Source: a virus. Taken from it: DNA of 64,000 bases. Location of the stretch: positions 96,001 to 160,000 of the IMG/VR virus record IMGVR_UViG_3300045988_119718. One strand, 5' to 3'. The position numbers were made by a program, and so were the translations under genes. The notes beneath the pieces are model-generated. The model ran no database searches, was not told the DNA's origin, and worked only from the letters and a program-made list of their open reading frames with translations. Each line of letters begins with the position of its first letter. Positions within the stretch are counted from its first letter, which is position 1. Of the stretch, positions 3,840-51,831 are shown one piece after another.

Positions 3840-5228
3840 GTGAAACTAATAATGGCTGATGATAATATTAAAAGTACTGTAATAAGAAAAGCAAGAGTAT
3901 CATTTGTTAAAGATAATACCCAGAATATTATCCATTATGAAACCGATGCTGATTGTGTTAAAAATCTTAATACGGCTATAGTAAACGGTGTAACTAATGT
4001 ATTTAATAATGATGATACTATTAGAGATATTATTACTAATATAGCTTTAGGTGGTGCTGATTTAAAATCTTATGCTAAATTAGATTCACCTAGTTTTATA
4101 GGAGAACCTAAAGCTCCTACTCCTATTACTTCTGATAACTCTCTTAAAATAGCAAATACAAAATTTGTAAATAATAAGATAGCAGAAATACGTGGTAATA
4201 CTATTGACAGAAACGATTTAAATAATTATGTAAATAAAACTGGTAATGATACTATTACTGGGTTAAAAACTTTTAATACAGATATTAATACTTCTGATAC
4301 TAGTACTATATACTGGAAAACTGGTAATACTACGGTAGCTAGTATAAATAAGACAAATTACACTGGCACAGCTGATAAAGCAGTTAAAGATCAAAATGGA
4401 AATATCATTAATTCTACATATGCTACTAAGGCTGAATTAAATAATAAACAAAATACTTTAACTTTTGATACTACTCCTAAAGCTGGGAGTACTAATCCAG
4501 TAACTAGTGGTGGTATATATAATGCTATTAAAGCATCTGGCAGTATAAGCGGTGATAGTTTAGCTGTAGTAGCTAAAACTGGTAGTTATACAGACTTAAT
4601 TAATACTCCGAGTTTAGCTACAGATTCTACATTAGGATTTACTAAGTTATATAGTTCTTCTGGTTCTAGAAGTGATGGTACTATTACACAAGCTGGTATT
4701 ACTGAGCTTTTGTCATATAAATTAGATAGAGAAAACTTATCTCCTATAGCGTTAAGTGGTGAATGGTCAGATATTTACAATGTACCTGTAGCTAGTGATA
4801 CTACCCAAGGTATTACTAAGCTCTATTCTACAACAGGTACAAACACTGACGGTGCCATATCTCAATACGGTATAAATAATATATTAGCTAATTATGCTAA
4901 GCTAACTGATATTACAGCTGCATATAGATATAAAGGAACTGTAGATAATTATAGTAATTTACCAACTGCACATAAAATAGGTGATGTATATAATATCAAA
5001 AATGCAGATGCTGCTAATAATATTAAAGCTGGGGATAATGTAGTATGGAATGGTACTGAATGGGATAATTTATCTGGTGTTGTAGATTTATCTGCATACT
5101 GTACTAAAGCTGAGTTAGATAAAAAAGCTAACATAGAATCTCCTACATTTACTGGTACTGCAACTGCAAGTAATCTTACAGTTACTAACTCTCTTAATAT
5201 TCCAGGTGGCAAAATCTGGATAGAATGA
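3840..5228 (+). CDS. Tail-fibre protein (462 aa) with Thr/Ser/Asn-rich fibre repeats and the conserved C-terminal tip ...LNIPGGKIWIE.
   Basis: The C-terminal ~25 aa are shared with minus-strand ORF 27220..28506. The low-complexity composition is typical of fibre proteins. Confidence 0.55.
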   Translation: MKLIMADDNIKSTVIRKARVSFVKDNTQNIIHYETDADCVKNLNTAIVNGVTNVFNNDDTIRDIITNIALGGADLKSYAKLDSPSFIGEPKAPTPITSDNSLKIANTKFVNNKIAEIRGNTIDRNDLNNYVNKTGNDTITGLKTFNTDINTSDTSTIYWKTGNTTVASINKTNYTGTADKAVKDQNGNIINSTYATKAELNNKQNTLTFDTTPKAGSTNPVTSGGIYNAIKASGSISGDSLAVVAKTGSYTDLINTPSLATDSTLGFTKLYSSSGSRSDGTITQAGITELLSYKLDRENLSPIALSGEWSDIYNVPVASDTTQGITKLYSTTGTNTDGAISQYGINNILANYAKLTDITAAYRYKGTVDNYSNLPTAHKIGDVYNIKNADAANNIKAGDNVVWNGTEWDNLSGVVDLSAYCTKAELDKKANIESPTFTGTATASNLTVTNSLNIPGGKIWIE

Positions 5229-6320: not shown

Positions 6321-6418
6321 TATGATGTTATTTTTGCCTTCATCGGTATTAACTTGAGATTTTTAGCAAAAACCTTAGCTGCGATTTCCCAATGTCCTTC
6401 TTGAAAAGTAGGAATCAT
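6321..6418 (-). CDS. Small ORF (32 aa, MIPTFQEGHWEIAAKVFAKNLKLIPMKAKITS) with a strong RBS.
   Basis: AAGGAGGG lies 7 nt upstream of the ATG in an otherwise non-coding gap. It is below the ORF-track length cutoff. Confidence 0.3.
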
Positions 6419-6444
6419 TATAAACCCTCCTTTATAAAATAATA

Positions 6445-6480
6445 ATATATATGAATAGCAATATTGCTATTCATATATAT
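6445..6480. terminator. Perfect 18+18 bp palindrome (ATATATATGAATAGCAAT|ATTGCTATTCATATATAT); terminator or operator.
   Basis: It lies immediately 3' of the minus-strand gene 6511..6960, in AT-rich context. Confidence 0.4.
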
Positions 6481-6510
6481 TATATGCAAATGAAAAAATA
6501 TTTTAAGAAA

Positions 6511-6960
6511 CTATTCTACAATGTACCAATCCTTAGACAACAAATCTGCTTGAGATGCTAACCATCCTAACTGTACTCCAGAAGTACCTACAAAAGCAAT
6601 TACTTTATTACCAGAAGTATCATGCTTAGCATTAATAAGATTACCATTACCATCGATATAGCTTGCATTATGTACTAATTCAATATACTGATTCTTGCCG
6701 TTCCATGCTTTTCTAGCACAACGTTCACCTACTTCAAGAGCAGTAATTGCTTCTCCAATACTCATACCAGTAGTTTTATCTTTTAAAGGAGTATAAAGTT
6801 CTTTAAAAATATCTGGCTTACATGGATACTGTTCTCCTTTAATACCTGTAATAATATAATCCCCTACACTAGCTTTCATATCTCCTTCTAATGTATGAAT
6901 AATCTTTTCTTCAAAAGTCTGATATGCTTCAATAATAAATGGTTTCTTTTGATATTTCAT
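6511..6960 (-). CDS. Hypothetical protein (149 aa).
   Basis: ORF only. Confidence 0.4.
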   Translation of the reverse strand: MKYQKKPFIIEAYQTFEEKIIHTLEGDMKASVGDYIITGIKGEQYPCKPDIFKELYTPLKDKTTGMSIGEAITALEVGERCARKAWNGKNQYIELVHNASYIDGNGNLINAKHDTSGNKVIAFVGTSGVQLGWLASQADLLSKDWYIVE

Positions 6961-6962
6961 GA

Positions 6963-8060
6963 TTAAACTCCTTTTGATACAATATCTTTCATAATCTTAT
7001 ATACTGTATTAGTAATTCTCTTAGTGCATTTATCACTCCTTTCAGATAATGTAGGAATATTTGAAATCATATACAAATTCATATTGATGAAATATGGTTC
7101 TACTACATCACCTGTAGATAAATCCATTGTATTAGAAGCTAAAGATAATAATACTACGATAGATCTAGAAAATCTATGGTCTTTATCATTCTTAATAATC
7201 CATTCAAATATATCTTTATCTTCAGGCTTATTCTTAGCCAATAAACCAATAATTAAAGAAGTATACAATGGAATATTATCACAATTTGTAGTTTTAGATT
7301 CTTTATCTGCAACGTCTTGTTTTAAATGATGCCTAATAAGCATATTAACTCTAGATACATGTCTCTTATATCTCTTATCAGAACATTCTTTAATAAGTTT
7401 ACTAAGAGTTATCTTTTTGACTTGTTCAATGAGAGATTCTAAAGTTAAAGCTCTCTTATAAGCTTCTCTACCAATAGAATATTCATTCTTTTCTTTTTCT
7501 TCCAAAAATTCCAAGTCTTCAGTAATACCAAATAAATCATTGTTATGATTAAACCAAGTTCTAAGAATTTCATCAGTATCTACATCGGTGGAAATATCTT
7601 TTACTTTATTAGCAAATTCCATGTTTTCATACATCATATAGGTACTATAAGCTCTAAATAAGATATAAGACTTAATAGCTTTATTTCTTTCTTTCTTATC
7701 TTTAATATCAGAAATATTAAGTTCTTCAGCAAGTATCTTAGCTAAGAAATCTTTATCAATATAATTTTCTACATCTAACTTATCTTCTTTATCATATTCT
7801 AGTTCTCTAGCAATTTTATAAACCTTAATGTCATCTTCGGTAGCTTCTACTTCTTTTAATTGCTCATCACTTAATTCTGGAATAGTAAAGTTTTCAATAT
7901 CTTTTTCAGTTAATGTTTTCTTAATAAGTTCATCAATTTCATCAGCATATTGAATTTTAACATCTTCTATTTCTTTATTACCCGCTTCAATAACATCTTT
8001 AATAGATTTGGTTTTAGTTACTTCTTCTTCCATAATAGTCTCCTTATAACTGTTTATCAA
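6963..8060 (-). CDS. Hypothetical acidic protein (365 aa).
   Basis: ORF, Glu/Asp/Lys-rich. It overlaps the stop of the upstream gene, consistent with translational coupling. Confidence 0.4.
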   Translation of the reverse strand: MINSYKETIMEEEVTKTKSIKDVIEAGNKEIEDVKIQYADEIDELIKKTLTEKDIENFTIPELSDEQLKEVEATEDDIKVYKIARELEYDKEDKLDVENYIDKDFLAKILAEELNISDIKDKKERNKAIKSYILFRAYSTYMMYENMEFANKVKDISTDVDTDEILRTWFNHNNDLFGITEDLEFLEEKEKNEYSIGREAYKRALTLESLIEQVKKITLSKLIKECSDKRYKRHVSRVNMLIRHHLKQDVADKESKTTNCDNIPLYTSLIIGLLAKNKPEDKDIFEWIIKNDKDHRFSRSIVVLLSLASNTMDLSTGDVVEPYFINMNLYMISNIPTLSERSDKCTKRITNTVYKIMKDIVSKGV

Positions 8061-8856
8061 AAATATTAGCTTTATTTATGGTGAAATTCTTTTGTAATTC
8101 CATTTTTACAGAGTTTACTAAGGATGGTGAAATTAAATCATTAGTAAGAATTGGTAGAATTAAAATTCTAAATAAATCAGCGGATGAATCAATATACTGA
8201 AGAAGATAATTCATTCTTACAATTTCATCAGCTGAAGTATAGATATAACTTAATGTAGTTCTAGAATCAAAATCTAACGCTGTAATAAAATCAATACAAG
8301 AATACAATTTAGCACTAATAATGGCTAAAGTATCATTAGAATAATATTGTCTATTATACATAGTAGATATATCTTTAGATTTCTTGTTCTTAATAAGATC
8401 TAATTGATTATAGATAAAATCTTTCTGATTTACAATAAAATTATATAAGAACTTGAATACATATTCATTATAATTAGAAATAAACAAATCAAAGATAATA
8501 GAGGCTAAATATCTTATGTCTACAGAATCTGTATCTTCAATAGTAAACTGAACTCCAGAATTATTAGAAATTCTACTAATAATTTCTAAATAAGTTTTAT
8601 TTCTAGTATAAATAATATTGTCTTTATCAGAAGGAAATTGATCTAATAGTTGTTTGAATGAATACTCTAATTCATCTATAAAATTAGGCTTAGAGATTAA
8701 AGAAAAAGAATTATATCTTTCTCTCATAAGATCATCAACCACATCATAAGTATATGATGAATTAAAATTCGACAGAATAGTAGACAGCTCGCCTTCTGCT
8801 ACTAATGAATATGCTTTATCGACACCATTGACTTCCATAATAAACCTCCATGCCAT
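8044..8856 (-). CDS. Hypothetical protein (270 aa).
   Basis: ORF only. Confidence 0.4.
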   Translation of the reverse strand: MAWRFIMEVNGVDKAYSLVAEGELSTILSNFNSSYTYDVVDDLMRERYNSFSLISKPNFIDELEYSFKQLLDQFPSDKDNIIYTRNKTYLEIISRISNNSGVQFTIEDTDSVDIRYLASIIFDLFISNYNEYVFKFLYNFIVNQKDFIYNQLDLIKNKKSKDISTMYNRQYYSNDTLAIISAKLYSCIDFITALDFDSRTTLSYIYTSADEIVRMNYLLQYIDSSADLFRILILPILTNDLISPSLVNSVKMELQKNFTINKANIFDKQL

Positions 8857-8940
8857 GTAAAGAAATCCTTCCCATTATAATATAGTAAAATAATGAATTA
8901 AAATGAATATAGAGATACCTCTATATGAGGTATCTCTAAT

Positions 8941-11220
8941 TTATCTTTCACCTTTAAAATTTTTAAAATTCATGTTTTTAGCTATTTGCTTCTTAGCTAT
9001 TTCCTCTGGGTCTTCTCCAAAGTTAGTAAACACTGAGTCTGGTATTTTAAACTTGTTAGCTTTATTAGTGGATATTAATTGTTCCTCTGGAATCTGAGAA
9101 TATTCAGCATATGCTTTTCTTACTGCTTTATTTTGAATCATATCCATAAGCATTTGTTCTTCTTGATTTCTTTGTTTTTTCATAAACTCAGAGAACATAG
9201 TACCCATACCAATCTTTAAAGTTTTTAAACACTCATCTACTTCTTTTCTAGTACTGTTTTCATCTTCTATAGGAATTTTAAACTCTTCTACTATTTCAGT
9301 GTACTTTTGTTCTAGGTCTTTACCTATATTATCATCAACAGAATCTTCTGTTTTAATTACACCTTTATCAATATTAAAGTTTTCTTTTAAATACTTACCT
9401 TCATACCAAACATATAATGCCATTAAATATGAGAATACTAAATCATCGTGAGAATTATCAGAGTGTTCTACTTTACCATTTTTCTTAACTACCATTTTAG
9501 ATAGTTCATCATACATAGTAGGAGAAGGCATTTTATCTTTATGCCTTTCCATTCTTTCTCTAAGTATTTCTATAAGTAAATCACGAGAACCTTTAGATGA
9601 ATCTAATCCATATACTTTAGTTTTTCTCTTTACTCTAATTGGTCTTCCTAATTCATCTGAAGTTTCTTCCATTACTCTTTCTTTGATTTCATAATAAAGA
9701 TTATCTTTAATTCCACCTGGTTCTTTTAATTTAGCAATAAGAGATGCTCCAAATCCTCCATTACGCTCGATATTTACTACCGCATTAGGCATCATTGCTT
9801 TAACCATCCAGATTAAAGTTCTTGCTAAATCAGGTATAGTCATATAGTTGCATTTTAAACCAGCGATAAATTGTGTAGTTTTAGAATCTATTACAGATAT
9901 TGCAGTATAGTCTCGTCTATATCCACCAGATACATCGACACCTATTATAGGAGGATTTATAGGTAACCCTGTAATAGATAATGGTATAGTATTATATATT
10001 TTGAATGGGTATTTATTTAATATTAATACTTCTCTTATAGGCTCATGTATCATACCTCTAAGAGTTTCTAAATCATCTTGACTAAATGGAGAATTTTCTG
10101 GAGTATCTATCCATTCGAGTAAAATTTCTCGACGTATATCTACCATCTTCCACATCATGTTTTTACATTGATCATAGAACCATTTTTCTCCCAATCCAAG
10201 TTGTTTATAAGAATACTTTATATATACAAATATGGAATTCATATTATTATTTATGATATCCATAATTTGTTCGTAAGTTAAGTCATACCATCGTTCATTA
10301 AATGGTGTAGCATTTTGTATCATATCATACGCAAATTGACCTTCAAAAGTAGACAATCTGCCTGGGGTAGTAGTTATAGTAATACCATATGGTACATTAG
10401 CTCTTTTAGCATTAATAAATGCTTTATTTAATGCTGGCATAGAGTTTACATAGATAGTAGAGTTAAATGCCGTGAATGCCCATTCGTCAGCCCACCACAT
10501 AGTAATGGTTTGACCTCTTAATAGGTTAGCTGCTGCTGTTTCATTTCTAGCACCAGGAACAGTTCTAATGATATTATGGTTTACTGGATGCTGTATAGTC
10601 TGTACAGTAGAAGGTAATTTCTTCTTTTTACCATTTATCACAGAGAACTCTTGAGATAATTGTAACCATGATGGTAATAAATCTCTAACAGCTTTAAATG
10701 ATTCCAAGTTTCGCTTAGCATCTTGATTCTGCTTATTCATAAATGTAATATTAGAATTAGCAGAAGCAAAGTTATATACATAAAGATATCTTACTATCGC
10801 TGCCATGGTTTTACCAACCTGACGAGGCATTTCAAAAAATAAATTCATATTATACATAGAGCAAAAATTAAAGGCTAAGTTGCCTCTATTAAGCTCATAT
10901 CTAACACCTCTAGGGTTACCATTAGCAGTTACTCTAACTACTTCTCTTAAGAAATACCAATAGTTTCTCTGTACTTCTCTATATATCTTCATTTTCATTT
11001 CCAAAGATAAGCTAGGATCATATGGATCTACACCAGCTAAATCTGGGTCAAATAAAGACAGCATAAATTTATTATTCTTAATACCAATACTCTTCAAATA
11101 ATAATGCATATTAATAAATGACTTATTAGCTGTAGACATTTGGTAATATATCTTTTGGGGAGCATATTGTATTTGCCTAGGTTGTTGCTGAGCAATTAAA
11201 TTAGATATTAAATCCGCCAA
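8941..11220 (-). CDS. Terminase large subunit, T4 gp17-like (759 aa).
   Basis: Walker A RQVGKT (compare T4 gp17 SRQLGKT). A Walker B-like hydrophobic stretch ends in ADEW. The C-terminal region has the character of an RNase-H-fold nuclease (GVDVSGG...D...). Confidence 0.65.
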   Translation of the reverse strand: MADLISNLIAQQQPRQIQYAPQKIYYQMSTANKSFINMHYYLKSIGIKNNKFMLSLFDPDLAGVDPYDPSLSLEMKMKIYREVQRNYWYFLREVVRVTANGNPRGVRYELNRGNLAFNFCSMYNMNLFFEMPRQVGKTMAAIVRYLYVYNFASANSNITFMNKQNQDAKRNLESFKAVRDLLPSWLQLSQEFSVINGKKKKLPSTVQTIQHPVNHNIIRTVPGARNETAAANLLRGQTITMWWADEWAFTAFNSTIYVNSMPALNKAFINAKRANVPYGITITTTPGRLSTFEGQFAYDMIQNATPFNERWYDLTYEQIMDIINNNMNSIFVYIKYSYKQLGLGEKWFYDQCKNMMWKMVDIRREILLEWIDTPENSPFSQDDLETLRGMIHEPIREVLILNKYPFKIYNTIPLSITGLPINPPIIGVDVSGGYRRDYTAISVIDSKTTQFIAGLKCNYMTIPDLARTLIWMVKAMMPNAVVNIERNGGFGASLIAKLKEPGGIKDNLYYEIKERVMEETSDELGRPIRVKRKTKVYGLDSSKGSRDLLIEILRERMERHKDKMPSPTMYDELSKMVVKKNGKVEHSDNSHDDLVFSYLMALYVWYEGKYLKENFNIDKGVIKTEDSVDDNIGKDLEQKYTEIVEEFKIPIEDENSTRKEVDECLKTLKIGMGTMFSEFMKKQRNQEEQMLMDMIQNKAVRKAYAEYSQIPEEQLISTNKANKFKIPDSVFTNFGEDPEEIAKKQIAKNMNFKNFKGER

Positions 11221-11261
11221 TATTGTTTCCTCCTTTCCTCTAAATTAATAAAATGTTTTAA

Positions 11262-11295
11262 ATAAAAAAAAAGAGAGGTCTAAACCTCTCTTTAT
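11262..11295 (-). terminator. Rho-independent terminator (hairpin AGAGAGGTCTAAACCTCTCT plus a U-run on the minus strand).
   Basis: Hairpin followed by T9 on the minus strand, 3' of gene 11340..11645. A near-identical copy lies at 11684..11713. Confidence 0.5.
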
Positions 11296-11339
11296 AAACG
11301 GCAGTTAATTATTGCCGTAAAAATAATTGAACACTTTTA

Positions 11340-11645
11340 CTAATTCTTTTTAGCACAAGCACTCTTAATAATGTTGAATGCTTCATGTGCTTTAGCACTA
11401 GATACATGATCTCTCTTACAGAGGAATTCACCATCATTAATAGCGTTGAATTCGATAGTATCATGAAACAGATTAACCGAAATCCAATATCCGTTACTAT
11501 TGATACTAAAGAATACTTCGCATATACCAAAATTAACAAAGAGAATTTTAGTACCCTCTCTACTAATTACTTGTTTGAGCAAGATAATCGTTTTATCCGC
11601 ACTGCTCAAATTATTTGGCGTTGCTTTCGGTAGTGTTTCTTTCAT
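11340..11645 (-). CDS. Hypothetical protein (101 aa).
   Basis: ORF bracketed by two near-identical terminator hairpins. Confidence 0.4.
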   Translation of the reverse strand: MKETLPKATPNNLSSADKTIILLKQVISREGTKILFVNFGICEVFFSINSNGYWISVNLFHDTIEFNAINDGEFLCKRDHVSSAKAHEAFNIIKSACAKKN

Positions 11646-11683
11646 AGTATTTTCCTCCTTCTAATAACATAGTAAATTATAGC

Positions 11684-11713
11684 AAAAAAAGAGAGATCTA
11701 AACCTCTCTTTAG
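11684..11713 (-). terminator. Rho-independent terminator; duplicate of the 11262..11295 hairpin.
   Basis: AGAGAGATCTAAACCTCTCT plus a U-run on the minus strand, 3' of the GC-rich ORF. Confidence 0.5.
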
Positions 11714-11718
11714 AATTG

Positions 11719-12042
11719 TCAGTCAATGACCGACAGTCCACGGCAGCCACATGGTCTGCCGTCCTCGCCACGAATCATCGGGCCAGGAACTAAAAGGTCT
11801 TTACGACCTTTTGCAGCCGACGCTACCAGTCGGCTGACAACCAGAAATGTTTCTGGCTGTGCTTCAGGGAGATTAATTACCTCCCCGAAGACTTGCTTAG
11901 TAACGGCAATGCCGTTAATAGAAGCTACATGAGCTTCTGTCTGAGTGCATCTAGGAACAATCCCAGATGCCTCAATAGTGAGGATGGTTCCATCCTCACA
12001 AACTACATCTAACTGATGAGGCGTGCAATTTACGATTTTCAT
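11719..12042 (-). CDS. Hypothetical protein (107 aa) encoded in a strongly GC-rich island (moron-like).
   Basis: Local GC is roughly 50% or more, against about 28-30% for its surroundings. The codon usage is foreign. It has its own RBS (GGAGGAAATCATTATG on the minus strand). Confidence 0.5.
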   Translation of the reverse strand: MKIVNCTPHQLDVVCEDGTILTIEASGIVPRCTQTEAHVASINGIAVTKQVFGEVINLPEAQPETFLVVSRLVASAAKGRKDLLVPGPMIRGEDGRPCGCRGLSVID

Positions 12043-12110
12043 AATGATTTCCTCCTTTGGAAAACTATATACATTATCATAGTTATAATATATAATACAA
12101 AAAATAAAAT

Positions 12111-12140
12111 ATTACACTACTCCATATGGAGTAGTGTAAT
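12111..12140 (-). terminator. Terminator hairpin ATTACACTACTCCATATGGAGTAGTGTAAT.
   Basis: Perfect inverted repeat 3' of the minus-strand gene 12156..12515. Confidence 0.45.
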
Positions 12141-12155
12141 ATTTATTATAACTTA

Positions 12156-12515
12156 TTATCTATCTACATAAACCATAGCTCGCTGAACACCAAATTCATA
12201 GCATTCAGCAAGACTATTCATATAGATATCAATAGCACCATCTGTACCACAGATATCATTCACTACATACCAATTATCATTAATCATAACTCTAGTTCCT
12301 AATGGTAAGAAGTTTGCTGCAACTCCTCCTACATAAGGAACCTCTCCTGTAGCAGTAAGCCCACTTGGTGAAGAATCTAACGTATACGCATATAATTCTA
12401 CTTCAATCCATTCAGCTGAAGTAGTATTATAATTCCCAAATAAACTAATAATCGTAAATAAAATAATCAAATACAATTTCTTCATCATAAAGCTTCCTTC
12501 CAATAAAATACACAA
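12156..12515 (-). CDS. Secreted 3D-domain (MltA/RlpA-like, Asp-Asp-Asp) protein; putative cell-wall-active protein.
   Basis: N-terminal signal peptide (MKKLYLIILFTIISLF). The 3D-domain consensus is present (...LPLGTRVMIND.WYVVNDICGTDGAIDIY). Confidence 0.55.
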   Translation of the reverse strand: MCILLEGSFMMKKLYLIILFTIISLFGNYNTTSAEWIEVELYAYTLDSSPSGLTATGEVPYVGGVAANFLPLGTRVMINDNWYVVNDICGTDGAIDIYMNSLAECYEFGVQRAMVYVDR

Positions 12516-14979: not shown

Positions 14980-17139
14980 TTAAGACTTAAAAATCGGTGT
15001 AATGAATTCTGGTTTCTTAGGCGCTTTTACTTCATTACTTAAAAATTCTTGTGGTTGTACCATAAAGAACATATCCATTCTAGATGATTCATCCTTAGCA
15101 TAAGTAATTGGATTAGTTAATGTGGATTTAAGATTCTTATATAAGAGACTAATAATAACTGATGGATTATTAGTAAGCGACTGATCTAATGAGAGAATCT
15201 GATATTCTTCATTATCATGCTCCCATTCTGGTAATTTCAATTTAGAATGCACACTTCTAATCTGATTCATAAGCATGCATTCTAGATGAACAGATTGAAT
15301 GGTAATCTTACCTTTAATAATCAGATTAATAAATTTCTTTAATAAAGAATCTTTATCCAAACCAATCAATTCATCTTTCTTGTTAATGAGACTTTCAATA
15401 TCTTTCAAGTTCTTATCGATATCGTTATTAATAATCTGGATATAGAATAATGCATTATCATTCAAAGTATTAATGAGATCTTCAATATCGATATGATACA
15501 TTCTATCACTAGCTAATGATAATCTTTTAAGATAATCAATAAAGTCTTCAGAGAAAAACATTTCAGTCATATTCTCAGAATGAATATCATATTTCTTACC
15601 ATTCGTATCTTCAAATACAAATGAAGTAATATAATTTGTAAACTGAGAAGAATCTGAGAAGGATGATTCCATATTATCTTCTTCATCAGAATCAGATTCT
15701 GTATTCTCCGTATTATCCATAATACTATTTGGATCGATAATAATATGACCAGCTTCAATATTATCATTGACATAGATCATATTTACATTATCTACATAGA
15801 AGAATTTATTAAAATTATCATTCCAATTAATCTTTTCAATTACAGTTTCAAGAAGATGTTTAGCTGACAACTGTTTCTGTGTAGTCTGTGAAGTCAACTG
15901 TTCTACCGCAAACTTACCTACTTTAAGATTAGAATTAATATAAGCAAGTTCTCCATAACATCTCTTACAAATACCATGACCATGTGCAGCGGATGCACAA
16001 GTCATTGGAGAGAAAAGATAAATTGTTTTACCAATAAGAAATGTATCAGTAGGATGAATTAAATAATCAATTCCATCTGGATTGGTTCTATAATATCTTC
16101 CTGTAAGCATACTAAGGATTTTGCTATTATCGATAGTAATCACAATAGGATTATGAGTATTACACTTATAATCCAAATCAGTGTTTAATACAGTATCAAT
16201 ATTATTAATACCCATGATACGAGCAAAGTTACCAGAAGATGATGTATTGTGCTTAACAATAATCTGTGCAACTCTAGAAGATGCAGAGTCTACAAACTGG
16301 TCTGCTACATGCTGTAAACCGCCCATAAGATAAGATCTATCAATGATATGAGGATGTACACCACCAGTACCATCTGGTTTAGAACCAATATGAATCGCAA
16401 ATTCTTTATACTGTCTAGGGCTAACACCTTCTCCAGTTTCAAAAGAATTCTTTAAACAATGATCGTATCCTAAAACAGATTTAGAATTCTTGATAATTTC
16501 GATGCTTCTATCTGCTTTATCCATACCAATATCTTTTACATCTTCGATACTTTTATCAATAAGTGATGTATGAACAAGATTATTGAATTCTGGAATATTA
16601 TTCATCAAATCGATAGTATCTTTAAGATTAATAGTATTAGCCAAGAAGAATGAAAAAGAATCTACATCAGAAAACTTAGATAAGGTATCATCGATAATAT
16701 TATTGAGAGAAATAGTGATTCTTTTCACATCCTGTTTATAGATATGACTAAACCTCTCTACAATAATAGGAATATATCTATCAAAATATTTTTTAATGCA
16801 TTTTCTATTAATTACTTTAGGACAGAATAGTGCTCTTCCATCCAAGGTAATACCACTCTTAACAACCAAATACCACATAATAATATTAAAATACAAATCG
16901 AAGATGGTTAAATCAACTACATCATTATTACCAAAATCTACAGTAATAATGAATCGTTTAATCTCTTCGGTTTCAATATTATCTTTAAGAATATTTAAGA
17001 TACCATCATAATATTCTTGCCAATTAGAACTAGTAATATCACTAGTTCTTAAATAGAATTTCCCAGTTCTAACTAAGTCTGCAAACATATAATAGTTTTG
17101 ATAGTTATTTAACATCTTACTCCTCCTTTTAAACAACAA
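14980..17139 (-). CDS. Large hypothetical protein (719 aa) with a Cys/His cluster (MTCASAAHGHGICKRCYGE) and an acidic Ser/Asp/Glu-rich linker.
   Basis: ORF; a possible zinc-binding motif. No confident family assignment. Confidence 0.4.
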   Translation of the reverse strand: MLFKRRSKMLNNYQNYYMFADLVRTGKFYLRTSDITSSNWQEYYDGILNILKDNIETEEIKRFIITVDFGNNDVVDLTIFDLYFNIIMWYLVVKSGITLDGRALFCPKVINRKCIKKYFDRYIPIIVERFSHIYKQDVKRITISLNNIIDDTLSKFSDVDSFSFFLANTINLKDTIDLMNNIPEFNNLVHTSLIDKSIEDVKDIGMDKADRSIEIIKNSKSVLGYDHCLKNSFETGEGVSPRQYKEFAIHIGSKPDGTGGVHPHIIDRSYLMGGLQHVADQFVDSASSRVAQIIVKHNTSSSGNFARIMGINNIDTVLNTDLDYKCNTHNPIVITIDNSKILSMLTGRYYRTNPDGIDYLIHPTDTFLIGKTIYLFSPMTCASAAHGHGICKRCYGELAYINSNLKVGKFAVEQLTSQTTQKQLSAKHLLETVIEKINWNDNFNKFFYVDNVNMIYVNDNIEAGHIIIDPNSIMDNTENTESDSDEEDNMESSFSDSSQFTNYITSFVFEDTNGKKYDIHSENMTEMFFSEDFIDYLKRLSLASDRMYHIDIEDLINTLNDNALFYIQIINNDIDKNLKDIESLINKKDELIGLDKDSLLKKFINLIIKGKITIQSVHLECMLMNQIRSVHSKLKLPEWEHDNEEYQILSLDQSLTNNPSVIISLLYKNLKSTLTNPITYAKDESSRMDMFFMVQPQEFLSNEVKAPKKPEFITPIFKS

Positions 17140-17368
17140 GGTTAAAAACCTTAATATGAAGTTCCCATGAACTTCATTATCAATTATATAATATATATTT
17201 GAGTAATACTTTTATTTGTAATTTATCTATGTTACCTTAGCGAAAGAAAGGAGAAATAAAGTGAATACCAAAAAGAGAGAGCGAGAGCCATATGACTCTC
17301 GCCAAAAAGTTTTATACTCGATAGCAATAATAAATTTTAAAATAGAGAGATAAAAATAAGAGATAAAA

Positions 17369-25719: not shown

Positions 25720-26105
25720 TTAATAATCAGTATCGTCTGGTGTGTGAGTATTAATTTCAGGAGAATAATATATAGTTACCCCTTCTATATCATTTTCATC
25801 ATTAACATCCTCAATTTTCCAACTAGTAATTTGATGTATATTATGGGTAAAACAATAAATACCATATACCATAGTATGATGAGGTGGTATATAATCTGTT
25901 TGAAGTCCCCATACATGTGTTGAGCCAGGGGTAACACCCACGTAAAATCCACGTACATAAAGTACCTTTATTCCATTTGGAACTGTAAATCTTTCTGAGC
26001 TATCTGGGCCTATATATATGCTTCCACTCGGTATACTTGCAGTTGCTGGGGTGACACTAATAGTTACCCCCCCCCCCATATAGTTCCTTTTAAAGATTGT
26101 GACAT
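25720..26105 (-). CDS. PolyG-family small protein (MSQSLKGTIWGGG|VTISVTPATASIPSG...SPEINTHTPDDTDY); phase-OFF as sequenced (G11).
   Basis: The RBS-proximal ATG at 26105 reads MSQSLKGTIWGGG* at G11. G12 or G9 restores the frame. The ORF-track model starts at an internal ATG embedded in the tract. Confidence 0.5.
26067..26077 (-). repeat. Homopolymeric G11 tract.
   Basis: Read directly from the sequence. Confidence 0.9.
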
Positions 26106-30459: not shown

Positions 30460-31248
30460 TTACTTCTTTTTCTTATTGTTATCAATTCTTACATACTGTA
30501 AAACTGAAATGAATACAATAGTAAGAATTGCAGAAGCAACAACCATTGGATAGCATTTAGTAATTCCATTGTAATATACTTCTGTTGCTATAATAGCAGC
30601 AGTTGCAATGAATACTAAAACACAAAGCACATTATAAAAGAAATCATTGTTGCACAAGAACAATTTCATTGGAATGGTAGTAGCAGGCTTTCTTTTGCTA
30701 ACCTTTTCTTTAGATGTAGTTCTTTTATAATTAGCTTCCGATTCTACAGCAGGATAGAGTTCTTCCTTATAGAAACTAATATTAACTATTCTAGATAATT
30801 TCTTTTTCTCATCTAAAGAAGAATAAACTGCTTTAGCTTCAGCAGTTGCAATATTGTAAGAAATCTTGTTAGATTTATTAGATACAAACAAAATATTCTT
30901 CATTAGTGTATCAATATCAGAAATAGTACTATCAGTTCTTTCCGCAATAACTAAGTAATCAATCTTTTCCAGATTGATATGCTTTAGCTTTTCAATATCT
31001 TCAATAGAGATATATGAATTGGTTGGAATAAACTTATTGCTAACAACTTTATCATTTTTAGCTGAATGATACAGAGAAATAATATATACAATAGATGGAT
31101 AACTCATAAGCATCTTAGCAGAAGTACCAAATTGTGTATCTGCAAAGATTAAAGAGTTATTCGCATTAATCTTAGTCTTATGGATAAGATTATAGTTGTA
31201 AAAGCTTAAAAAATCTACAATACTATTTTCGAGTAATTTAATATGCAT
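30460..31248 (-). CDS. Hypothetical protein (262 aa) with C-terminal transmembrane helices.
   Basis: Hydrophobic C-terminus (VLCVLVFIATAAIIATEVYY...VVASAILTIVFISVL). Confidence 0.4.
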   Translation of the reverse strand: MHIKLLENSIVDFLSFYNYNLIHKTKINANNSLIFADTQFGTSAKMLMSYPSIVYIISLYHSAKNDKVVSNKFIPTNSYISIEDIEKLKHINLEKIDYLVIAERTDSTISDIDTLMKNILFVSNKSNKISYNIATAEAKAVYSSLDEKKKLSRIVNISFYKEELYPAVESEANYKRTTSKEKVSKRKPATTIPMKLFLCNNDFFYNVLCVLVFIATAAIIATEVYYNGITKCYPMVVASAILTIVFISVLQYVRIDNNKKKK

Positions 31249-50589: not shown

Positions 50590-51831
50590 ATGCCAGAAAC
50601 TAAATATTTTCTTGATGCGGCTGGTTTAGCTCGTTTTAAAACAAAGCAGGATGCAGCTAATGAAGGCAAATTCTTAGGTATTAATGCTAAAGCTAAGACT
50701 GCTGGTGCAGCAGATACCGCTGCAAAGCTTGCTGCTGCTGTAGCTATCAACGGTGTACTCTTTGATGGTTCTAAGGCTATTACTATTGAAGATGGCACTA
50801 AGCTTTCTCTCGCTGATGCTGAAAAGCTTTATCTCAAGAAGGCTACTGCTGATACCACCTATCTTCCGCTCCATGGTACTGCCGATAAAGCAACCAAGCT
50901 TGCTAATCAGGTAAAGATCAATGGTGTACTCTTTGATGGCTCTGCTGATATCACTGTAGAAGATGCTACCAAGTTACCGCTCCATGGTAAGGCTGATACC
51001 GCTGGTACTGCTGACACTGCTGCTGAAGCTACTCATGCTGCTGCCGCAGATACTGCAACCAAACTTGCAGCTGCTGTAACGATTAACGGTGTTGACTTCG
51101 ATGGTTCTAAAGCTATCACTATCAATGCTGTAGATTCAACTGCTCGTATCGCTGAATCTGAGAAGGGTGTTGCAAACGGTGTTGCTACCCTTGATACTGC
51201 TGGTAAGGTTCCGGCTGCTCAGTTACCGTCTTACGTTGATGACGTAAAAGAATATGAAAACAAGGCTGCTTTCCCTGAAACTGGTGAAGCTGATAAGATT
51301 TATGTAGATATTGATACCGGTAGCATTTATCGTTGGTCTGGTACGCAGTATATTCAGATTAATACTTCTGTAGCATCTGCTGATACTGCTGTCAAACTTG
51401 CAACGGCTCGCAAGATTGCTGGTGTTCCGTTTGATGGTTCTGCTGATATCACCATTCCGGCTGGTAACGTCGGTGCTTTCACCAAAGAAGAAACCACTAC
51501 TACCTTCCTTTCCAAAGCTGATGCTACGACTACTTATGTTGCTATTACTCCAGGCAAAGACCTCTCTGATAACAACTTCACGACTGAACTTCTCACCAAA
51601 CTTAACGGTATTGAAGAAGGTGCTAACAAGTATGATCTTCCGCAGGCTTCCTCTACCACCCTCGGCGGTGTAACGGTTGGCAGCAACATTACCGTAAAGA
51701 CTGGTACTATTTCTTTAGCTAAGGAAAATGTAATTGCAGCTCTCGGTTATACTCCGTCTGATTCCGCAGCAGAAGTACCGGTAGAAGCTATTTCCGATAC
51801 CGAAATCGATAAGCTCTTTGCTACTGAATAA
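50590..51831 (+). CDS. Tail-fibre protein (413 aa) with classical phage tail-fibre repeats (ATKLA..V.INGV.FDGS..ITI).
   Basis: At least 5 copies of the K(L)A..V.INGV.FDGSA.IT motif. GC content and codon usage are noticeably different from neighbouring genes. Confidence 0.55.
   Translation: MPETKYFLDAAGLARFKTKQDAANEGKFLGINAKAKTAGAADTAAKLAAAVAINGVLFDGSKAITIEDGTKLSLADAEKLYLKKATADTTYLPLHGTADKATKLANQVKINGVLFDGSADITVEDATKLPLHGKADTAGTADTAAEATHAAAADTATKLAAAVTINGVDFDGSKAITINAVDSTARIAESEKGVANGVATLDTAGKVPAAQLPSYVDDVKEYENKAAFPETGEADKIYVDIDTGSIYRWSGTQYIQINTSVASADTAVKLATARKIAGVPFDGSADITIPAGNVGAFTKEETTTTFLSKADATTTYVAITPGKDLSDNNFTTELLTKLNGIEEGANKYDLPQASSTTLGGVTVGSNITVKTGTISLAKENVIAALGYTPSDSAAEVPVEAISDTEIDKLFATE

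Follow-up and report, generated by a model that had tools for sequence, protein, structure and literature searches.

A GC-rich gene for a predicted Crn4b-type ring nuclease in a variable cassette slot before the terminase gene of an uncultured jumbo phage

Organization of the locus

The stretch of DNA analysed here, called the window in the following, comprises 64 kb (positions 96,001 to 160,000) of the IMG/VR virus record IMGVR_UViG_3300045988_119718 and has a GC content of 29.9%. An earlier interpretation made from the letters alone (the sequence-only reading) had drawn attention to a small GC-rich open reading frame (ORF). The ORF encodes a 107-aa protein, which we describe below as a predicted ring nuclease of the Crn4 family. 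Together with a gene for a 101-aa protein it occupies a slot between a conserved 110-aa gene and the gene of the terminase large subunit (TerL). All genes around the slot are on the minus strand. Exact-protein look-ups yielded 24 metagenome loci of the same phage group (TerL 92-100% identical), which served as relatives for comparison; single loci are designated by L numbers. The features of the slot, in the direction of transcription, are the following.

12107..12144, minus strand: terminator of the upstream 110/119-aa gene and 5′ border of the slot; 17-bp stem and T-run, -23.3 kcal/mol, z = -7.2; kept in relatives
12078..12097, minus strand: candidate early promoter of the Crn4 unit, TATTATATATTAT-AACTAT-G; agrees with the early consensus of phage AR9 in 11 of 13 positions; G 36 nt 5′ of the ATG
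12050..12058, minus strand: Shine-Dalgarno sequence AAAGGAGGA, read from the sequence, 8 nt 5′ of the start codon
11719..12042, minus strand: gene of the predicted Crn4b-type ring nuclease, 107 aa, 48.8% GC
11713..11739, minus strand: palindrome of the Crn4 unit, CTGTCGGTCAtTGACTGACAG, found by RNA folding; overlaps the last Crn4 codons and the stop codon, first of the tandem hairpins
11688..11711, minus strand: shared terminator hairpin, copy 1, AAAGAGAGGT-TTAG-ATCTCTCTTT and T-run; ends the Crn4 unit
11676..11684, minus strand: putative promoter of the 101-aa unit, TGCTATAAT, a perfect extended -10 box right after the T-run; 5′ edge of a 418-bp indel
11340..11645, minus strand: gene of the 101-aa ORFan protein (p101), between the two shared hairpins
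11298..11318, minus strand: palindrome of the 101-aa unit, ACGGCA-ATAATTAAC-TGCCGT, found by RNA folding
11270..11293, minus strand: shared terminator hairpin, copy 2, AAAGAGAGGT-TTAG-ACCTCTCTTT and T9; ends the 101-aa unit and the slot
11246..11257, minus strand: AACA-TTTTAT-TA, 3′ border of the slot; fits the AR9 late consensus, 26 nt 5′ of the TerL start
8941..11220, minus strand: TerL, 759 aa (PHROG E = 4e-50); conserved downstream anchor

The hairpin AGAGAGRTCTAAACCTCTCT occurs exactly twice in the window, at 11272-11291 and 11690-11709, where 0.01 copies were expected from shuffled sequences; the sequence-only reading was right in stating that a terminator hairpin is present in two copies. 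Both have the structure of intrinsic terminators on the minus strand (10-bp stem, 4-nt loop, T-run), and each lies second in a tandem pair of folded hairpins (-20.5 and -21.9 kcal/mol; z = -5.4 and -3.5). It had also been noticed that the two copies bracket the neighbouring small gene, and this gene is the 101-aa ORF 11340..11645(-).

In the relatives every unit has a palindrome just 5′ of the shared hairpin, AT-centred in the non-Crn4 units. Five internal junctions were examined. At four of them (L001, L030, L036) the T-run of the hairpin is followed by the box TGCTATAAT or TGTTATAAT; the one in L027 differs. A search of IMG/VR with the hairpin pattern found it, with a different loop, in two unrelated contigs, and these were treated as generic terminators.

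Identity of the 107-aa protein

Crn4, a CRISPR ring nuclease described in 2025 (Chi et al.), forms small homodimers and has a distinct fold (PMC12830947). It degrades the cyclic oligoadenylates cA3 and cA4, and the variant Crn4a, of which the characterised cellular representative comes from the actinobacterium Actinomyces procaprae, also cA6; the H15A and R112A replacements abolish Crn4a activity (PMC12830947). Crn4b homologues are present in 11 of 28,137 phage genomes, and were proposed to be anti-CRISPRs (PMC12830947).

The sequence-only reading had left the identity of the 107-aa protein to a homology search. No significant match was obtained in Pfam or NCBIfam, and the PHROGs matches were to families of unknown function only. 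PADLOC returned Unk_01 ('unknown small protein, sometimes fused to CARF') with E = 1.3e-21. A profile built from 26 homologues of the protein (alignment A1) matched, in the Protein Data Bank (PDB), the structures of Crn4b (9r7b, E = 8.6e-17), Crn4a (9sma, 8.2e-15) and the Crn4 H15A mutant (9qs9, 3.6e-13). As a single sequence the protein matched the Crn4 structures with E values of 5e-8 to 2e-6 (HMMER).

The AlphaFold2 model of the protein has a mean predicted local distance difference test score (pLDDT) of 94.9. Strands 31-42 and 45-56 form a long hairpin, and there is one helix (71-76). In a Foldseek search against the PDB the top seven matches were all Crn4 (E ~4e-9, template modelling (TM) score 0.76 to 9r7b), and the next match had E > 1. 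The long hairpin arm, which mediates dimerisation of Crn4, is present in this monomer model.

Residues T7, H9 and R91 align with T13, H15 and R112 of Crn4a, and H9 and R91 correspond to H17 and R103 of Crn4b. None of the three varies in alignment A1. The ligand contacts S91 and R92 of Crn4a have Ser70 and Arg71 as their counterparts, of which Ser70 is nearly invariant and Arg71 differs in a few members. The alignment with Crn4b is contiguous (query 3-106 to chain 10-117), whereas that with Crn4a falls into two pieces separated by extra chain residues, and for this reason we assign the protein to the Crn4b type. The best TM score of the model was likewise to 9r7b. By homology, modelled fold and catalytic residues the GC-rich gene is thus a predicted phage gene for a Crn4b-type ring nuclease.

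Translated searches (tblastn) found homologues in 21 phage records (29-42% identity), which include Paenibacillus, Bacillus, Thermobifida and Microcystis phages and archaeal viruses. Between Crn4 alleles the ratio of nonsynonymous to synonymous divergence (dN/dS) is 0.15-0.45, which indicates that the protein is maintained by selection.

Composition of the gene and origin of its GC excess

Recalculation showed that the composition is not uniform. ORF 11719..12042(-), described in the sequence-only reading as having about 50% GC in a genome of 28-30% GC, has 48.8% GC (0.61, 0.45 and 0.40 at the first, second and third codon positions, GC1 to GC3) as compared with 29.9% in the window. It is the richest 324-nt stretch in GC within the 64 kb. 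The GC content changes in steps at its borders, from 20% in the upstream intergenic region to 49% in the ORF and to 27% in the downstream intergenic region. The neighbour genes have GC3 values of 0.17-0.22.

The expected composition was estimated by back-translating the protein with the codon usage of the 37 long ORFs of the window. This gave 39.0 +/- 1.2% GC and a GC3 of 0.165 +/- 0.033. The observed GC3 of 0.40 exceeds the expectation with z = 7.2, and the neighbour genes have z values between -0.7 and +0.7, in agreement with the foreign codon usage that had been claimed for the gene. From the back-translation, about half of the GC excess is due to the amino acids (Val, Gly, Ala, Pro, Arg) and about half to atypical codons. 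The ribosome-binding site (RBS), which had been called phage-style, is the sequence AAAGGAGGA at 12058..12050(-), 8 nt 5′ of the ATG.

The GC content of Crn4 homologues and of their flanks was compared in different contexts.

L038, unidentified contig: gene/flank GC 0.62/0.50, GC3 0.74
L016, IMG/VR viral contig: gene/flank GC 0.59/0.43, GC3 0.74
L023, relative with 61% TerL identity: gene/flank GC 0.53/0.31, GC3 0.58
Window, this phage: gene/flank GC 0.49/0.30, GC3 0.40
L035, close relative: gene/flank GC 0.46/0.29, GC3 0.38
L037, another low-GC phage: gene/flank GC 0.43/0.30, GC3 0.31
L033, Megamonas metagenome-assembled genome (MAG): gene/flank GC 0.32/0.31, GC3 0.21
L034, Streptomyces genome, 36% identity: gene/flank GC 0.71/0.71, GC3 0.93

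In phage-type contexts the homologues are mostly GC-richer than their flanks, with the exception of L017 (0.60 vs 0.65). In the two cellular genomes (L033, L034) the GC content of the homologue matches that of the genome. Among the homologues in low-GC contexts GC3 falls stepwise (0.74 > 0.58 > 0.40 > 0.31 > 0.21), a graded series that fits import from GC-richer genomes followed by partial amelioration. One part of the GC excess would then be intrinsic to a protein rich in Gly, Ala, Val, Pro and Arg, and the rest would be the codon signature of the import, not yet erased.

The sequence-only reading had suggested a donor of much higher GC content. A higher-GC origin is plausible, given the relatives with a GC3 of 0.74 and the actinobacterial Crn4a, but a direct donor was not identified. 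IMG/VR contained only distant Crn4 homologues and one TerL fragment, and one degenerate peptide pattern, scanned against the GTDB genomes, returned two loci only, so the donor cannot be named.

Instead of being the trace of a transfer, the high GC content could be kept by selection, through amino-acid needs combined with a constraint on the nucleotide sequence (mRNA structure or stability, the 3′ palindrome). The amino acids alone lift the expected GC content to 39%, and GC/AT differences at third positions are balanced between alleles. The 3′ 54 nt, which contain the palindrome, are the most GC-rich part of the gene (63%) and the most conserved between alleles. Moreover, GC3 is similar (0.35-0.44) across alleles whose synonymous divergence (dS) exceeds 1. 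AT-rich codons are, however, tolerated by the family, since the homologue in the Megamonas MAG has the GC3 of its genome (0.21). The graded series across hosts looks like amelioration, and the contrast between backbone and cassette dS described below is that of a real transfer between genomes. We therefore regard maintenance by selection as unlikely, and prefer import as the source of the atypical codons.

Predicted role of the Crn4b-type protein

Judged by its homologues, the protein would be a homodimeric, metal-independent phosphodiesterase that would open cyclic oligoadenylates (cA3, cA4, possibly cA6), His9 acting as the general acid and the partner subunit contributing Arg91. These messengers would come from Cas10 of type III CRISPR systems and, in the case of cA3, from some cyclic oligonucleotide-based antiphage signalling systems (CBASS). 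With the messenger destroyed, the CARF and SAVED effectors would stay off, which would amount to an anti-CRISPR action. Type III CRISPR, which senses RNA, is regarded as a major threat to such phages. Most likely, as far as can be told from the sequence, the protein is an early-expressed anti-CRISPR that degrades cyclic oligoadenylates, and it may act against cA3 signalling, too. The Tad2-like protein encoded approximately 5 kb from the Crn4 gene provides an anti-defence context.

A different job for the same fold, such as acting on another nucleotide signal or on RNA 3′ ends, or serving as a ligand sponge, appears distinctly unlikely. It would accord with the identity of only ~31% to the characterised enzymes, with the dispensability of the gene in some close relatives, and with the slow cleavage of poly-A RNA by Crn4a (PMC12830947). 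On the other side stand the invariance of the catalytic His and Arg and of the conserved Thr, and the alignment of Ser70/Arg71 with the Crn4a ligand contacts S91/R92; moreover, a sponge would have no need to keep the general acid. We retain the ring nuclease as the predicted function.

Content of the slot in related phages

Among the 24 loci the slot between the conserved 110-aa gene and TerL contains one to three units, in eight architectures.

Crn4, then p101: window, L011-L013
Crn4 (93% allele), then p101: L001-L004
Crn4 alone: L010, L014
Crn4 alone (71% allele, 113 aa): L035
123-aa gene translationally coupled to Crn4 (73% allele): L005-L009
111-aa gene, then p101, without Crn4: L027-L029
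116-aa gene, then p101, without Crn4: L030
Crn4 (71% allele), then p101, then 109-aa gene: L036

At each locus there are as many shared hairpins as transcription units, from one to three, with three in a row in L036. The Crn4 gene proved to be accessory when its presence and absence were compared in related genomes, as the sequence-only reading had proposed: L027-L030, in spite of 97-98% identity in TerL, have other cassettes in its place. No Crn4 homologue was found near TerL in phages with 77% and 58% TerL identity.

In L010 and L014 the Crn4 protein is identical to that of the window, the 101-aa gene is missing, and there is a single hairpin. An alignment of the window type with the L010/L014 type (alignment A2) revealed a clean indel of 418 bp, with the two hairpin copies as its boundaries. 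It follows from this pattern that the element gained or lost between the hairpins is the 101-aa unit and not Crn4. The idea that the terminator had been duplicated along with a GC-rich insertion was not borne out, since the hairpin-bounded indel is the 101-aa gene.

On the minus strand, the Crn4 gene has its own terminator on the 3′ side (11711-11688) and the terminator of the preceding gene on the 5′ side (12144-12107). The succession of terminator, candidate promoter, RBS, ORF and terminator supports a moron-like character of the Crn4 unit.

An assembly chimera, a possibility that the sequence-only reading had raised against its own interpretation, was considered and rejected, because the same arrangement is present in independent assemblies of different samples made with different assemblers (L011-L013, L001-L004).

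GC-rich Crn4 alleles (71-100% identical, some with dS > 1) fill the slot across the clade. A more distant relative, L023 (TerL 61% identical), has a GC-rich Crn4 homologue in the gap between the helicase and TerL genes, on the opposite strand and apparently frameshifted. This homologue (4405..4724, minus strand of the locus; 53% vs 31% GC) is spread over two frames in an uncalled 650-nt gap, and may be a pseudogene or an assembly error.

Exchange of cassettes

The window type and L035/L036 have almost the same backbone: the TerL exons are 100% and 99.6% identical, the helicase 99%, and backbone dS is 0.04-0.06. The Crn4 proteins of the same loci are only 71% identical, with a dS of 0.53-0.55, tenfold that of the backbone. 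From this contrast we conclude that cassettes were exchanged by recombination. Between the window and L001, 12 of the 20 nucleotide differences in Crn4 fall within nt 21-45 (Crn4 dS 0.14 vs backbone 0.03-0.06), and the cluster looks like a recombination patch. Conservation between alleles is highest in the 5′ flank and in the 54 nt at the end of the Crn4 gene, which may offer homology for allele replacement.

In the mechanism that we propose, the slot would consist of one to three small, separately terminated units between the 110-aa gene and TerL, each ending with a unit-specific palindrome followed by the shared hairpin AAAGAGAGGTTTAGACCTCTCTTT and a T-run. The repeated hairpin and the conserved flanks would supply short homology for gain, loss and swap of units between co-infecting relatives, a process that can be likened to the one described for the promoter-early stem-loop (PeSL) motifs of T4-like phages.

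The sequence-only reading had explained the locus by a single recent GC-rich insertion from a high-GC donor, with a local terminator duplicated on arrival. This we find improbable. Foreign codon usage, the sharp GC step at the ORF borders, the absence of the gene from some close relatives and the two hairpin copies all speak for such an event. The hairpins flank the 101-aa gene, however, which is itself the indel, and L010/L014 as well as L036 contradict this explanation. The hairpin is also carried by units of unrelated content, and GC-rich alleles with 71-100% identity sit in the same slot clade-wide, with a homologue beside TerL even in the TerL-61% relative. Of the 'recently acquired cargo', the foreign look and the accessory nature of the gene stood; 'recent' applies only in the sense of rapid turnover, given alleles across the clade that diverge by up to 27% in protein and by dS > 1.

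That the palindrome-hairpin ends are attC-like sites at which a dedicated recombinase moves the units is very improbable: every unit end does have an imperfect palindrome and a conserved hairpin, and the units form an array, but no integrase or recombinase was found among the called genes and Pfam matches within 10 kb around the slot at any locus, most units apparently have their own promoters, unlike integron cassettes, the 64-kb window has one such array with two hairpin copies, and the conserved flanks at allele swaps would suffice for homologous exchange.

Candidate promoters and predicted expression

In AR9 the early promoters, used by the virion RNA polymerase (RNAP), have the consensus AAATATATATTAT-(6N)-G, and the late promoters the consensus AACA-(6N)-TA/G (PMC5312081). 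The early motif 5′ of Crn4 is kept in eleven relatives with Crn4 as the first unit (L001-L004, L010-L014, L035, L036). The exact 10-nt core with the downstream G, TATATATTAT-N6-G, occurs four times in the window (0.77 expected), and three of the four copies are located just upstream of same-strand ORFs. The other exact copies lie at 17181..17200(-), 25758..25774(-) and 31072..31088(-). The copy at 17181 is a perfect (13/13) early consensus 42 nt 5′ of the RNAP-beta-like ORF 14980..17139, and is kept in L023. These sequences suggest that the phage group uses AR9-type virion-RNAP promoters.

A virion-RNAP early promoter at the candidate site would allow expression right after entry of the DNA. 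Early synthesis of Crn4 by an injected polymerase would be apt for a counter-defence enzyme. The short motif AACA-TTTTAT-TA before TerL is conserved in all relatives and is consistent with a late promoter. A scan of the region for sigma-70 promoters found 7, as compared with 9.3 expected in shuffled sequences; since this is no better than chance, host-type promoter calls were not relied on.

Assessment

Taken together, the data make it probable that the GC-rich gene is a Crn4b-type cassette in a hypervariable, hairpin-ended slot before TerL, that the units of the slot are swapped between relatives, and that the part of the GC excess not due to the amino acids derives from import.

Several points weigh against this interpretation. 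The enzymatic role is a predicted one, for phage Crn4 proteins in general and for this one. The substrate range cannot be read from a sequence that has only ~31% identity to Crn4b, and the role in defence would presuppose a host with a type III CRISPR or a cA3 CBASS system. A GC3 of 0.35-0.44 in alleles with dS > 1 is also compatible with selection on composition. Exchange mediated by the hairpins is deduced from end states alone, and some of the hairpin repeats could stem from tandem duplication, because the non-Crn4 units are paralogous. As to early expression, the early core is weakly enriched (3 of 100 shuffles reach four copies), and the full 13-mer consensus of AR9 with up to two mismatches is not enriched in the window (14 vs 11.9 expected). 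Crn4 in L005-L009 lacks the early motif and is translationally coupled to the 123-aa gene, and the Crn4 gene adjoins a late gene, TerL.

The 101-aa protein and its superfamily

The 101-aa protein has no match in Pfam, PHROG or NCBIfam. A weak match to CorA in PADLOC (E = 0.007) was taken for noise. A search of 1.84 billion representative proteins gave only 4 clusters at E < 1e-10. Its AlphaFold2 model (pLDDT 78) has no neighbour in the PDB at E < 0.1. The GC3 of the gene is 0.287, as compared with 0.184 expected (z = 2.9).

The 116-aa and 123-aa proteins are paralogues of the 101-aa protein, and profile-profile comparison showed the 109/111-aa family to be distantly homologous to it (97% probability, E = 5e-11). 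On the basis of these relationships all non-Crn4 cargo of the slot belongs to one ORFan superfamily, for which an alpha-beta5-alpha arrangement without a known fold match was modelled. The superfamily would be confined to this phage group, its members filling other positions of the slot in relatives.

The region 5′ of a slot-first member of this superfamily (L027 3327-3460, L030 3434-3573, L005 5481-5632) is unlike that of Crn4. A leader hairpin, AAGCTTGAA..TTCAAGCT, located between a TATAAT-like box and the RBS, is conserved 5′ of these slot-first members.

We tentatively put forward, as a possibility that we hold to be doubtful, that the slot is a dedicated counter-defence array, expressed early, of gut AR9-like jumbo phages, in which Crn4 and the ORFan superfamily (101, 109/111, 116 and 123 aa) are interchangeable or cooperating inhibitors of cyclic-nucleotide immunity. 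If true, the superfamily would be a new anti-defence family: a cyclic oligoadenylate sponge, an effector inhibitor, or a shield against type II Panoptes-like guards that fire on cA3 removal. The presence/absence polymorphism of Crn4 would then reflect a trade-off imposed by guard systems.

The phage and its neighbouring genes

Among the products encoded in the window are a divergent family-B DNA polymerase, an RNAP-beta-like protein, a helicase and TerL. The best annotated relatives of TerL are those of the Bacillus jumbo phages Goe21, PBS1 and AR9 (38-39% identity). Metagenome contigs carrying the same genes span 150-260 kb, and a megablast search of 50,697 phage records with the 3-kb region gave no match. 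The phage would be a jumbo phage of ~250 kb and 29% GC, distantly AR9/PBS1-like and known from metagenomes only; its clade is absent from cultured-phage collections.

The product of the conserved gene 5′ of the slot (12156..12515, minus strand) is small and has a hydrophobic, signal-like segment at its N terminus. It matches PHROG families of unknown function weakly and L-alanyl-D-glutamate peptidase faintly (E = 0.05).

The Tad2-like (Thoeris anti-defence 2) protein (6511..6960, minus strand, 149 aa) matches PF11195 with E = 3e-18, above the curated cut-off. Its gene is kept in the relatives L001, L010 and L011, and is a second candidate counter-signalling gene.

TerL is intact in the window (8941..11220). 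In several relatives the gene is split after codon 488 by an insertion of ~340 nt without an ORF (L001/L002 6820-9446, L035 5423-8049, L036 6357-8983, L005-L008 ~6404-9035), and the flanking parts are 100% and 99.6% identical to the TerL protein of the window. An Rfam search of the insertion yielded no family at E <= 0.01. In AR9 and PBS1, too, TerL is annotated as several pieces. The insertion could be an unclassified intron, or the gene could be genuinely split.

A second GC-rich island is located at 50590..51831 (plus strand), with >42% GC over ~1 kb. It contains a 413-aa Ala/Thr/Gly-rich ORF with repeated 'INGV.FDGS..ITI' units, which resembles a tail fibre, and its GC excess looks amino-acid driven.

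Outside the phage group, a 62%-identical Crn4 homologue adjoins a 447-aa gene with a precomputed AcrVA2-like Pfam match (PF26125) at two loci (L038 4794..6751, L039 491..2448). The homologue has 62% GC in a contig of ~50% GC, and its surroundings resemble an anti-defence neighbourhood on an unrelated element.

Significance

The locus adds abundant and highly polymorphic viral Crn4 alleles from uncultured jumbo phages to a family whose anti-CRISPR role in phages has so far been proposed only. Near-isogenic genomes that differ only in the cargo of the slot are natural controls for the cost and benefit of a ring nuclease. Crn4 expression activates type II Panoptes guard systems (PMC13577387), and triggering guards that sense cA3 loss is a possible cost of carrying the gene. 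This activation is a possible reason why close relatives differ in carriage. New counter-defence functions may be sought in the ORFan superfamily that shares the slot with Crn4. In annotation, this GC island should be taken for a small anti-defence cassette, and not for contamination or a chimera.

Comparison with known systems

The Crn4 family was already known to have phage and plasmid members. The 107-aa protein shares with Crn4b (9r7b) a match over the whole length, a small all-beta architecture with a long beta-hairpin arm, and the catalytic His/Arg together with Thr. It is also short like Crn4b, without the insert of ~10 residues that Crn4a has at the base of the hairpin. It differs from Crn4b in sequence (~31% identity, 107 aa), in that its activity is predicted only, and in its location, which is the hypervariable cassette slot of an uncultured jumbo phage and not a type III CRISPR locus.

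With AcrIII-1 (DUF1874) the predicted role is shared, namely that of a viral enzyme which destroys cyclic oligoadenylate and thereby disarms type III CRISPR effectors, and so is the use of a histidine as general acid (PMC12830947). Fold and family are unrelated. AcrIII-1 accepts cA4 only, whereas cA3 is also a substrate of Crn4 enzymes (and cA6 of Crn4a).

PeSL cassettes of T4-like phages (PMC2839356, PMC4122927) resemble the slot in that a repeated terminator stem-loop and a promoter, here a candidate one, flank small accessory ORFs, in that the repeats delimit the indels and replacements by which near-identical phages differ, and in that the units are mostly ORFans. The sequence and the phage lineage are unrelated. 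PeSLs number dozens per genome, whereas here there is one slot with 2-3 copies (two in the 64-kb window of a ~250-kb genome). Here, furthermore, the stem-loop precedes the promoter box, and a second palindrome stands before the stem-loop. Mini-circle intermediates are a feature of PeSL; the present comparison is one of sequences.

The moron concept of Hendrix and Juhala was developed for lambdoid phages. Like those morons, the Crn4 unit has an odd composition, is located between conserved genes and is missing in close relatives; with its terminator and its candidate promoter it would be an autonomous unit. It differs from them in being part of an array of exchangeable units that share a terminator, in a jumbo phage of the virulent type, and in carrying a predicted counter-defence enzyme, not a lysogenic-conversion gene.

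Integron cassette arrays also consist of short single-gene units, each with a terminal imperfect palindrome. In contrast to these, the slot has no integrase nearby and no attC-like sequence, and most of its units have an RBS, promoter-like boxes and terminators. By analogy, the closest counterparts of the slot are the PeSL cassettes of T4-like phages and the classical morons, and the GC-rich gene is a further member of kinds already described, Crn4 on the one hand and moron/PeSL-like cassettes on the other.

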